This document shows positions 30,309 to 43,853 of a DNA stretch of 64,000 bases, piece by piece. Source of the DNA: Candidatus Poribacteria bacterium (lineage in GTDB: Bacteria; Poribacteria; WGA-4E; WGA-3G); NCBI GenBank assembly GCA_965247285.1, contig CBDFHD010000002.1, positions 364,499 to 428,498 of the forward strand. The letters are read 5' to 3'. The stretch's first letter is position 1. Every line of letters starts with the position of its first letter. The translations under genes were made by a program, and so were the position numbers. The notes beneath the pieces are model-generated. The model had not been told where the DNA came from. It did not search any database and saw only the letters and a program-made list of their open reading frames with translations.

Positions 30309-30597
30309 CAGTCTTTTCTGCTGAAGACTGAAGACTGAAGACTGAAAACTGATGGCTAACGGCTATCTGTTTGAAGTTATACCCAACTCTTTTTCCGAAA
30401 TCGGGATGTTAAAGACGGCACGATGTACTTGCATGATGGCTTTTCTAAATGTTGGCAGGGGCTTTTGTTTCGGGTTCAAATCCCTCCACTCCCAACGAGA
30501 TGATCTTTTTACGGGACTTCACGGAATGAAAGCCCAATGCTTTAGCTTTGGGATGAAATTCCGCCCTCTTGGAAAGGACCAAACGCCTAAAATAGAT

Positions 30598-30626
30598 TTG
30601 ACTTTCAGTCCAAATTGTGGTATAAT
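30598..30626 (+). promoter_or_regulatory. Element-internal sigma70 promoter for tnpB
   Basis: TTGACT-17-TATAAT with TGn. Confidence 0.7.
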
Positions 30627-30729
30627 TAGAGTATCACGTTGGAGACCGACATTTGTAGCGTTACCGCTTGGTAACGTGTCGGTTTCCTACCCACTACAAA
30701 GGGGTTAAAGGCGTGATACGTGAAAACCC

Positions 30730-31842
30730 ATGAAAACCTATAAATACCCGTTGGGTAAACAACTGAACACAATACGCATTGGTAATTTGCTTGACGATAT
30801 GTGGCAAGTGCATGAGTATTTCCATAAATGGCATCGTCAACGGTATAAAGACGGGCTGCCGTATGCGAACTACGCGGCAATGTGCACGCACCTCACTGAA
30901 CTTAAGAAAACCACACACCCACATTGGAACGCCTTGCCGAGCCAAGCGATCCAACAAGAGTTGAGACGGATTGACGCAGCGTATGACAGATTTTTCAAGA
31001 AACTCGGTGGTAGACCGAAAATCAAAAAGAGACACAAGTTTAAGTCTATCACCTATCCAGGAGAAGCGGGTTGGTCTCTGAAAAACAATCGTATCACCCT
31101 CACATTTCGCAAGTGGGATAAGGGTAAGTGGCGATTTGATAAAGTGCCTTACACTTTCCATAAACACCGCCAGTGGCACGGAACTATTAGTCGTATCACC
31201 ATCAAGCGAGATGCCTGTGGAAACTATTGGCTTTACATCATCACAACCTACACGGATTTTAAACCGCTGCCGACAACAGGTCAAAGCGTTGGGGCAGACT
31301 TCGGTATGAAAGACGCATATTTGACGCTTAGCACGAGTGAGAAGATACAACACCCACAACCTTTGAAACAGTCCTTGACGAAACTCCGCAAACTCAACAA
31401 AGCATTGAGCCGTAAGCAAAAAGGTTCGGGCGGTTGGTGGCGTGCTGTTCGTGAACTCGCACGGCTTTATCGAAAAATCATCAACCAACGCAAAGACTTT
31501 CATTGGCAACTCGCCACCGATCTTTGTAAGGCTTTCGACACAATCGCCATTGAAACTTTGAACCTGAAGGGCATGAAGAAACTTTGGGGATGTAAGGTCT
31601 CCGATCTCGCCTTCTACCAGTTCGTTGAGATATTGAAGTATAAGTGTATCAAACATAAGCGTCTTTTGAAGCAAGTCGGTCGATGGACTGCTACAACGAA
31701 ACCGTGTAGCGATTGTGGTTTTCACAACGAAACCCTAACACTTTCTGACAGACAGTGGATATGCCCTGAATGTGGTTCACACCACGATAGGGACATAAAC
31801 GCTGCGATAAACATATTGCGGGCAGGGATAGCCGTTATTTAA
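30730..31842 (+). CDS. tnpB: RNA-guided endonuclease TnpB
   Basis: RuvC VGADFG / IAIETLN / DRDINAAINI plus CSDC...CPEC zinc finger. Confidence 0.95.
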   Translation: MKTYKYPLGKQLNTIRIGNLLDDMWQVHEYFHKWHRQRYKDGLPYANYAAMCTHLTELKKTTHPHWNALPSQAIQQELRRIDAAYDRFFKKLGGRPKIKKRHKFKSITYPGEAGWSLKNNRITLTFRKWDKGKWRFDKVPYTFHKHRQWHGTISRITIKRDACGNYWLYIITTYTDFKPLPTTGQSVGADFGMKDAYLTLSTSEKIQHPQPLKQSLTKLRKLNKALSRKQKGSGGWWRAVRELARLYRKIINQRKDFHWQLATDLCKAFDTIAIETLNLKGMKKLWGCKVSDLAFYQFVEILKYKCIKHKRLLKQVGRWTATTKPCSDCGFHNETLTLSDRQWICPECGSHHDRDINAAINILRAGIAVI

Positions 31843-31989
31843 CGATATGCCTACGGTTTCCGTAGGGAAATGCCCACAGGTGGAGCGAAAATAAGACGGT
31901 GGACTCTACGAGAAAACCGCAGTCGCTATGAAACCGAAGCCCACGCCTTCAGGCGTTGGGTGCTATCACCGCACACCTGACCCCCATTG
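31800..31989 (+). ncRNA. Predicted omegaRNA (reRNA) scaffold plus guide of element 1; 5' end approximate
   Basis: Inferred from established TnpB biology: the scaffold spans the tnpB 3' end and right end, and the guide starts at 31970 (CGCACACCTGACCCCCATTG). Confidence 0.55.
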
Positions 31990-41605: not shown

Positions 41606-41938
41606 TCCACCTCTTCCACGTTGGTTTCCAAACTGTATTATCCAATTATACCCAACTCGATATATAATGTCAAGTTAACACCTCGATTTCGCCCAAATAA
41701 GCCAGTTGTCGATTGCAAAGATAACAGGAGTTGACCCAGCAACACTTCATCATTTCATCCGAACTAGTGTTGTGTCAACCCTCTGTTGAAGGATAGAGTC
41801 GCTTGAGTTTGATACGCGCATCTTTGGTAGTAAACCGCCATTGGACAGTCTCACGTCGCTCATTTCTTCGATTTTGCCATGCCTGAACCTCGCGCTTTAG
41901 GGTCTGTTGGTCAGATATACGTCGTCAACTACCCAAGC

Positions 41939-43231
41939 CTAAAGACTTGGGCTTGCGATAGCACTAAACAGCATTAGCTGTGTTGCGTTTTGCAAGTCCA
42001 AATCTCGTGCTTCGTTCGTGTTTCCCGCTTCAGTGAGGGTGGTAACCCACCGCTCTCCACGAAGGGCCGCAGCAGCCCTGAAAAGTATGTTTATCGCAGC
42101 GTTGTGGTCTCGGTCTAAAGACGTGTCACAAGACTGACAATCGAAGGTGCGTATCGCCAGAGAGAGCTTCTTTGGCGACTTCTGACCGCAGCAAGAGCAA
42201 GTTTGTGAGGTGTTCTTGGGATTCACTTGGTGGAAGTGGAAACCGTCTCTTTCGGCTATGTTTCCACACCACTCAAAGAACTTACCCCAAGACGCATCAG
42301 AGATACTCTTGCTGAGGTGTTTATTCTGAACCATATTGGAAATGCCCAAATCTTCAGCGATAAGGACGTTATTCTTCTGATGATGATAAAGTTTGTAAAC
42401 GAGTTTACCCATAAAATCTTTTCGCTTGTTTGTTGTGCGCTCATGGTGCAGGGCAGTCGTGTGAACGGCTTTTTGCCAGCGGTTGCTCCCTTTCTTTCGG
42501 CGCGATTGTGTTTTAGAGTGTTTATGGAGCAAGCCTTCTGCTTTACGATACCAACGTGGGTTATCCTCTTTTTCGCCTTCAGAAGTCGTCAGATAGTGCG
42601 TTGTCCCCATATCCACGGCAATCGCAGCAGTCGGTTCAACTTTCGCGGTGTTAGGCATCTCAGAAGTGATATGAGCATACCAACCCGACGCTTTTTTCAC
42701 AAGAGACACTTCTTTCGGGTCTCCTTCTAAAGGACGATGCATGTATATCTTAACTTCGCCTAACTTCGGCACTTTTAAGCGATTGTGCCGGTAGTTGGTT
42801 TCTATGATTGGGTTCTCGCGAACGCGTATTGTCTGTTTGTCAGTGTCTTTCGTCTTTTTACGAACCACTTTGGTATATTTTCGTAGACTCCATGTCAGAG
42901 AACGCACGCGCTTTTTGTAGCGAGGGTATCCTTTTTTCGCAGCGTTTTCTTTACAACGTTTACGGAAGGCAGCAAACGCTTTATCGTTTCTCCGTAGGGC
43001 ATGGTTCTGAAAATCTTGGGGAACCTCGCGGAAATCGTCATATTTCTCACGCGCTGCCGTGAGAAGTGTCTGCTGGTCAGTGAGCGAAACAAAAATGCCT
43101 TCTGTTTCATACGCCACAGTCCGATCATGGCGGGCAGAGTTCTGTAACTCACATAGGTGGTCTAACCACGCTAATAATGTCGTTTCCTGTGCTTGTGTCG
43201 GATACACAGGATAGGTAAAAGTCAATTTCAT
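41939..43231 (-). CDS. tnpB: RNA-guided endonuclease TnpB
   Basis: TFTYPVYPT HTH start, RuvC AVDMGT / IAEDL / DRDHNAAINI and CSCC...CQSC finger. Confidence 0.95.
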   Translation of the reverse strand: MKLTFTYPVYPTQAQETTLLAWLDHLCELQNSARHDRTVAYETEGIFVSLTDQQTLLTAAREKYDDFREVPQDFQNHALRRNDKAFAAFRKRCKENAAKKGYPRYKKRVRSLTWSLRKYTKVVRKKTKDTDKQTIRVRENPIIETNYRHNRLKVPKLGEVKIYMHRPLEGDPKEVSLVKKASGWYAHITSEMPNTAKVEPTAAIAVDMGTTHYLTTSEGEKEDNPRWYRKAEGLLHKHSKTQSRRKKGSNRWQKAVHTTALHHERTTNKRKDFMGKLVYKLYHHQKNNVLIAEDLGISNMVQNKHLSKSISDASWGKFFEWCGNIAERDGFHFHQVNPKNTSQTCSCCGQKSPKKLSLAIRTFDCQSCDTSLDRDHNAAINILFRAAAALRGERWVTTLTEAGNTNEARDLDLQNATQLMLFSAIASPSL

Positions 43232-43327
43232 GGTATATCGTGTATCGTGCGTTTATCCCCTAACGAGTGGGAGGCAAGCACGCCACCAAGCGGTGACGCT
43301 CGTTATGCTTGCCAACACGATACTCTA

Positions 43328-43356
43328 ATTATACTACATTTTGGACGGAATGTCAA
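43328..43356 (-). promoter_or_regulatory. Consensus sigma70 promoter inside element 2
   Basis: Minus strand TTGACA-17-TATAAT. Confidence 0.75.
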
Positions 43357-43853
43357 ATATATTTTGGTGTTTTGGTCCTTTCCAAGAGGGCGGTTTTTCC
43401 TCCCAAAGCTAAAGCATTGGGATTCCAAACCGAGAATTCCCTTGAACAAACCAGAGCGATCAGATGTGCTTCTTTTTCGCCATCAAACTTTTCGGGTCTT
43501 GAGGCTTTACGTTCTTTCGGATTCAGTAGCAGTGTGTGGCGGTAGACTCGAAAGTCTTTCTCAGTTGTGTGTTTCCGCAATTAGTGAGATCATAGCATGT
43601 TCTGAGAAAAAAGTGAAGAATTGATCGGCATTTAGTCAGAGCACACTTTAAAAAACGTTTGACTTTGGTCAGAAATTCTGGTAGAATAGGCGTATCTGTT
43701 GCAACCTGACACCTATCAGTGTTTTCGTCCACGCCTCACAATGGACAAAGTAGATGCAGAAAACCATAGACAATGCGAAAAAACGTTACTCGGTGGACTC
43801 TGCAACAGAAATTGTCTCTTTGAAAATCCGACACGTTAACGTTTAGGAGGCTT

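Follow-up and report, generated by a model that had tools for sequence, protein, structure and literature searches.

A tnpB-only transposon behind TCAA in a sponge-symbiont Poribacteria genome, with IS608-like guide words and a kissing-loop leader RNA

Element 2 is a complete tnpB-only transposon of 1518 bp (43441..41924, minus strand) without a tnpA gene. It is best explained as a non-autonomous, IS1341-type member of the IS200/IS605 family that carries IS608-like guides and inserts 3' of TCAA, a reading to which we give a probability of about 0.85. Positions are those of the window, the whole stretch of 64,000 nucleotides that was analysed, which comes from the genome of a sponge-symbiont Candidatus Poribacteria bacterium (a MAG of 5.65 Mb in three contigs, 96% complete). 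An earlier note on this DNA had placed a TnpB element at 41904-43445, a range that comprises element 2 together with the 20-nt would-be guide on the 41904 side and TCAA on the 43445 side. Everything that it observed of the element's anatomy is borne out, and the coordinates alone need trimming. The parts of element 2 and its immediate flanks are as follows.

43442..43445, minus strand: TCAA, the host target word directly 5' of the left end, read from the sequence and from family copies
43441-43426, minus strand: 16-nt spacer of the left end
43422..43425, minus strand: GAAT, the left guide tetranucleotide, adjoining the left hairpin on its 5' side and pairing with TCAA by the IS608 rule
43402..43421, minus strand: left-end subterminal hairpin of 20 nt, the same as that of element 1
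43427-43432 with 43391-43396, minus strand: outer 6-bp stem around the left hairpin, with compensatory changes between elements
43328..43356, minus strand: sigma-70-type consensus promoter (12/12 hexamer matches, 17-nt spacer), present in ~49 copies in the genome
43232..43323, minus strand: kissing-loop (pseudoknotted) leader RNA of ~92 nt, from the promoter to the tnpB ATG, supported by covariation
41939..43231, minus strand: tnpB2 ORF of 430 aa, with RuvC D/E/D motifs and a zinc finger
41924..42078, minus strand: conserved folded 3' region, the presumed omegaRNA scaffold, with consensus helices in 23 family copies
41952-41955, 41932-41951 and 41924-41927, minus strand: right end, made up of guide CAAG, hairpin and, after a 4-nt spacer, TGAC
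41904..41923, minus strand: right flank, the would-be 16-20-nt omegaRNA guide, assigned by position only from the ISDra2 mechanism

In IS608, bases 1, 2 and 4 of the site pair with bases 2, 1 and 4 of the guide, respectively, and guide bases 1 and 2 also enter into triples with the two bases that follow the hairpin on its 3' side (PMC3201880). The pairing rule holds at both ends of element 2, with GAAT/TCAA on the left and CAAG/TGAC on the right. On the left, GAAT is seen at 43425-43422 and TCAA at 43445-43442, 16 nt upstream as the earlier note had it; its claim that the right end obeys the same rule agrees with both the coordinates and the base pairing. The element has subterminal imperfect palindromes at both ends and no terminal inverted repeats, a trait of IS200/IS605. 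The loop of the right-end hairpin is formed by the stop codon of tnpB2 (TAG, 41941-41939), which lies 15 nt from the end of the element; the earlier note had likewise placed it in this hairpin.

Sister genomes of the genus contain many copies of the element 2 family, at 72-82% DNA identity. TCAA stands directly before all 12 copies that have a readable left end, and these occupy independent sites in more than 10 genomes of the genus. Homology among the 12 left ends begins right after TCAA, and the flanks upstream are unrelated. The possibility, raised in the earlier note, that other copies do not follow TCAA has no example among them. At the other end, 32 of 32 family copies finish in TTGAC (cleavage word TGAC), after which unrelated DNA begins. 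The host site of element 2 is a remnant of an IS630-like transposase gene. This gene is unique in its own genome, where no empty site was found, so sister genomes were compared. With uninterrupted IS630-like homologues from other genomes, the right flank can be aligned starting at precisely 41923, and the four bases before the junction are TCAA in the closest informative homologue (TCGA and TGTA in two more diverged ones). Taken together, the family flanks and the empty-site comparison show that element 2 inserts 3' of TCAA without target duplication. The flanking peptides gave a weak HTH_32 hint only in Pfam and no match in NCBIfam.

About 0.66 kb of the IS630-like gene is missing at element 2. 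Its two flanks (43442-43580 and 41775-41923, both minus strand) lie ~666 nt apart in intact sister-genome copies of the gene, and TTC is present at both junction sites of the deletion. The missing segment and the repeated TTC suggest that the element first inserted at the downstream TCAA and that a deletion by microhomology then removed sequence on its left.

The same rule can be followed across the genome, which has ~50 tnpB loci and ~49 left ends. The word that it predicts was found in the expected 18-nt interval at 40 of 47 left ends, against a chance of ~6% for each. Seven target words are in use (TTAC, TTAA, TTAT, TCAA, TCAC, TCAT and TGAA), all of which begin with T and have A as their third base. 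The two bases on the 3' side of the hairpin track guide base 1 without exception, AG going with G, AT with A and TC with C; element 2 has AG. This covariation is the pattern of the two IS608 ends. Two left ends of the element 2 family (L003 and L076) have TCCT in place of the guide GAAT. TCCT can pair with the bases on the 3' side of the hairpin, zipping the guide's internal loop into a continuous helix, and both ends are probably dead. A TnpB2-clade left end on contig 3, near 950109, combines the guide GAAG with TTAT where the rule predicts TCAC, the result of either a left-end swap or a decayed flank.

The insertion words are distributed by nuclease lineage. In a maximum-likelihood tree of the 36 full-length TnpBs of the genome, each well-supported clade keeps one target word; the TCAA clade consists of element 2 and two paralogues, and its sister groups use TCAC. 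The target labels require 12 changes on this tree versus 23.9 when shuffled, and none of 200 shuffles was as low. Since related copies share labels, the test shows clustering and not independent events of co-evolution. Word switches between neighbouring TnpB clades are single-base (TCAA/TCAC, TTAC/TTAA and TTAC/TCAT).

A second element in the window allows these differences to be seen side by side.

30513..31969, plus strand: element 1, the comparison element
30509-30512, plus strand: TTAC before its left end, with the guide AAAG in the element
30533-30552, plus strand: its left hairpin
30730-31842, plus strand: tnpB1, followed by the right end, GAAG-hairpin-TCAC

The left hairpin of element 2 is identical to that of element 1, as the earlier note had observed, letter for letter over 20 nt. 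It occurs exactly twice in the window, at 43402-43421 (minus strand) and 30533-30552 (plus strand), where shuffled sequences lead one to expect 0. The left ends of the two elements are 85% identical by alignment column and their nucleases 28% identical. Copies of the element 1 clade stand after TTAC in 6/6 cases and those of the element 2 family after TCAA in 12/12, and the claim that different insertion specificities lie behind an identical hairpin is upheld by the guide words. Indeed, the same 20-nt hairpin is found with at least four guides (AAAG, GAAT, GAAG and CAAT). What sets the targets of elements 1 and 2 apart is the guide word and not the hairpin.

IS608 of Helicobacter pylori resembles element 2 in its subterminal hairpins with TTTAG-type loops, the four-base guide at their 5' foot, the base-triple dinucleotide AT or AG 3' of the hairpin and the lack of target duplication. 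The two systems even share word pairs, namely AAAG/TTAC, which is the left end of element 1, and GAAT/TCAA. The latter pair is the left end in element 2, TCAA being the insertion target, whereas in IS608 it belongs to the right-end cleavage site. Unlike IS608, element 2 is without tnpA, has an outer stem around guide and hairpin, and carries a promoter and a structured leader before tnpB. By the IS608 mechanism, a Y1 transposase supplied in trans would bind the subterminal hairpins and move the element as single-stranded DNA. Cleavage and target words would be found by pairing with the guide tetranucleotide of each hairpin, GAAT reading TCAA on the left and CAAG reading TGAC on the right, with insertion 3' of TCAA as the outcome. 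When IS608 is engineered, a change of the left guide yields a predictable insertion word while hairpin and transposase stay constant (PMC5934647 and earlier work cited there). The retargeting seen here is this established guide rule in nature, richly replicated; unlike the engineered series, this one is natural, comprises seven variants in a single genome and is coupled to distinct TnpB clades.

Where the transposase would come from is less straightforward. Pfam's Y1_Tnp identifies four loci in the genome, and one of them, at 1805329-1805748 of contig 3, is a canonical tnpA with HUH motif and tyrosine, followed by a 412-aa tnpB. The other three are probably RAYT-type genes, as which we take them by their N-terminal motifs. 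The 3' part of one of these three (PF01797, E = 4e-19) spans the start of the window at 1-75 on the plus strand. At its left end, the resident tnpA element is built in the usual way (TTAT, outer stem, AAAA), except that the loop of the inner hairpin is different; this left end matches some tnpB-only left ends in all but the inner hairpin. Across the genus, left ends could be read at 29 of the 30 tnpA-bearing loci surveyed (L095-L124). Hairpin type follows TnpA clade, and the resident clade is the only one without the TTTAG-loop hairpin. Guide and target differ even within one TnpA clade (AAAA/TTAT versus AAAG/TTAC), and a tnpA element of a sister genome, L122, has exactly the hairpin of element 2 with the guide CAAT and the target TGAA. 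A TnpA of element 2's hairpin type was not found in this 96%-complete genome and is present in sister genomes. Since transposase clade and hairpin type go together, they predict which elements a genome can still mobilise.

The earlier proposal that elements 1 and 2 share one trans-acting TnpA therefore stands in part. The hairpin is common to elements with different guides, as sharing would have it, but the ends of the resident tnpA element carry a different one. Each of the two elements is an old single copy. For element 2, the closest paralogue has 82% DNA identity, which is also the best match anywhere searched, with no near-identical copy among the sequences covered. Given the single canonical tnpA with its different hairpin, the match of clade and hairpin and the age of the single copies, stranded relics of a once-shared transposase type are more likely than a pair that is currently co-mobilised. 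The current mobility of element 2 is doubtful, as a hairpin-matched TnpA was not found in the genome, near-identical copies are missing and the element sits at the junction of the ~0.66-kb deletion.

Taken to its conclusion, this would make elements 1 and 2 immobile fossils whose cognate transposase type has been lost, with the resident TnpA serving elements that have its own hairpin, and the pair would record past, not present, retargeting. The chances of this are about even. It is favoured by the hairpin loop at the resident ends, by the agreement of TnpA clade and hairpin type over the 30 loci and by the distance of element 2 from its nearest relative; moreover, the closest pair of copies in the TnpB tree (end branches 0.005 and 0.015) has the resident hairpin type. 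However, the ORF, catalytic motifs, promoter, leader, both hairpins and both guide words of element 2 are all intact, the resident left end is nearly identical apart from its hairpin so that cross-recognition is possible, and the 96% completeness of the assembly has to be borne in mind.

A different history could also lie behind the contrast between ends and nucleases. If left-end cassettes were swapped by recombination, an identical hairpin in ends that are ~80% identical beside nucleases that are 28% identical would be explained without shared descent under one transposase. Left-end modules are 73-85% identical across all clades, and the left end of element 2 is nearer to those of GAAA-guide elements of the TnpB1 superclade than to some TnpB2-clade ends. 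Strong purifying selection on hairpin, promoter and leader would, however, give the same pattern, and we hold module exchange to be a possible account with somewhat less than an even chance.

TnpB2 has 430 aa and is divergent, as the earlier note had described it; its ORF is intact and its identity to TnpB1 is 28%. It matches OrfB_IS605 (PF01385) and Cas12f1-like_TNB (PF07282) in Pfam, and its alignment with the ISDra2 TnpB (8bf8/8exa/8h1j) spans residues 5-389 (E = 8e-40) and shows the RuvC motifs. The basic insertion that had been noticed is a Lys/Arg-rich segment of ~20-22 aa, which alignment gaps place roughly in residues 113-150; it is absent from TnpB1 and from ISDra2-type TnpB. In ISDra2, the measured TAM is the full TnpA target (PMC8612924). 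Because TAM and TnpA target are identical there, TCAA is the predicted TAM of TnpB2, and by the same published identity (PMC8612924) TnpB1 and TnpB2 would be expected to have different TAMs. The fourth base varies in the TnpB2 clade (TCAA, TCAC), so that TnpB2 might read fewer than four bases. It is unlikely that the insertion words differ while the TAMs overlap, both nucleases reading a shorter or degenerate motif such as T-Y-A and the nuclease not being truly retargeted: close relatives of TnpB2 (70-84% identical) do stand behind TCAA or TCAC, those of TnpB1 behind TTAC, TTAA or TCAT, and all target words share T at position 1 and A at position 3, but ISDra2 reads its full target as TAM (PMC8612924), and the single word kept by each well-supported TnpB clade would be unneeded with a relaxed TAM.

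The omegaRNA (reRNA) system of ISDra2 from Deinococcus radiodurans is the nearest guide to the 3' part of element 2. The two TnpBs are homologous over their full length, in both systems a structured RNA region reaching as far as the right boundary overlaps the gene's 3' end, and the TAM is expected to equal the transposase target. The differences are the target itself (TTGAT in ISDra2, a predicted TCAA tetranucleotide here), the basic insertion of TnpB2 and an ORF that runs into the right hairpin. Its last ~165 nt (about 42078-41924) contain conserved helices with compensatory changes in 23 family copies, and this fold overlaps the last ~46 codons of tnpB2 and stops at the right boundary. An omegaRNA scaffold almost wholly within the CDS, where the earlier note had placed it entirely, would fit such a conserved 3' fold. 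The element's own promoter would drive the leader, tnpB and a 3' omegaRNA scaffold running into the right flank, and on the ISDra2 model TnpB2 with its omegaRNA would restore element 2 by cutting the joint left empty in the donor (TCAA plus right flank). Rfam gave no match for the 3' region or for the leader, either at the gathering threshold over the whole window or at E <= 10 over the element.

The mechanism is textbook IS608 and ISDra2 biology, and element 2 by itself is accordingly ordinary. Its value lies in the data set to which it belongs: one genome and about 60 sister genomes with dozens of related TnpB elements whose insertion word is readable, takes seven values and tracks the nuclease clades. 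Closely related nuclease pairs with predicted TAMs one base apart lend themselves to the mapping of TAM-reading residues in compact genome editors.

Downstream of the promoter lies a structured leader that ~49 copies in this genome have in common.

43316-43323 with 43242-43249, minus strand: stem P1 of the element 2 leader
43299-43305 and 43261-43267, minus strand: its kissing strands
43236-43242, minus strand: heptamer repeat of the P1 3' strand
30630-30729, plus strand: leader of element 1, between a consensus promoter and the tnpB start

The fold of the leader is closed by stem P1 and comprises a long arm (P2-P3), interrupted by an internal loop of 7 nt, and a short hairpin (P4). In every copy the P4 loop is perfectly complementary to the 7-nt internal loop, though the sequence of both is hypervariable. 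Among 25 distinct copies, 94% of cells are paired and 23 of 33 pairs show double changes; none of 500 shuffles reached such pairing, and slid registers did not come close either. The kissing helix is 99% paired and includes all four Watson-Crick types. Immediately upstream of the ATG, a tandem heptamer repeats the 3' strand of P1 and covaries with P1.

With a covariance model, the leader was found in 84 of 151 Poribacteria genomes, belonging to two families only. None of the 30 tnpA-bearing loci of the genus has it. Beyond the phylum, a narrow pattern scan of genome contigs returned five Poribacteria records and one Pseudophaeobacter MAG contig, and the latter was not confirmed by the covariance model. 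Several identities were considered and rejected. Pairing of a leader strand with the omegaRNA region finds no third copies of the variable strands elsewhere in the elements. A tRNA-like leader, with a stem followed by CCA, fails since CCA is missing in many copies. Hammerhead, twister and HDV-type ribozymes do not match it in junction sequences and topology, judged by their consensus folds, and Rfam is silent. Our literature search turned up no publication on the TnpB of Poribacteria and none on a kissing-loop leader 5' of tnpB.

Eight mini-elements of ~500 bp consist of left end, promoter, leader, omegaRNA-like region and right end and are gene-less (e.g., L017:1500-2080 and L015:1030-1610 on contig 3 of the same genome). 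Their omegaRNA-like region resembles the 3' end of element 1, and their right ends finish in TCAC. Judged from their sequence, they would make guide RNA without encoding a nuclease. That they retain the leader speaks for a fold with a role for the RNA of the element itself, beyond the translation of tnpB. There is roughly one chance in three that the leader is a 5'-terminal stabilising and folding domain in which the duplicated heptamer offers an alternative pairing over the start region.

Combining these observations, one may imagine a natural reprogramming series in the genus, a speculative scheme that we regard as less likely than not. Cassettes of hairpin, promoter and leader would move between TnpB clades, single-base changes of the guide would retarget insertion, and matching changes in related nucleases (70-84% identical; TCAA versus TCAC) would retarget the TAM. 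The leader, confined to tnpA-less elements and under structural selection even in the mini-elements, which have lost the gene and retain only the omegaRNA region, may be a new class of RNA that acts in RNA stability or TnpB loading as well as in the control of tnpB translation.

Structured 5' leaders are familiar from the mRNAs of IS transposases, such as the stem-loop of IS200 that covers the ribosome site. Like these, the tnpB leader is a fold between promoter and gene, and one of its possible pairings covers the start region. It differs from them in its kissing-loop fold with a hypervariable, complementary pair of loops, in its restriction to tnpA-less elements and in being kept in mini-elements, and it is a structured RNA, so far undescribed, that accompanies a nuclease family in wide use. 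In the mini-elements the leaders have diverged to five different kissing sequences, which are always complementary.
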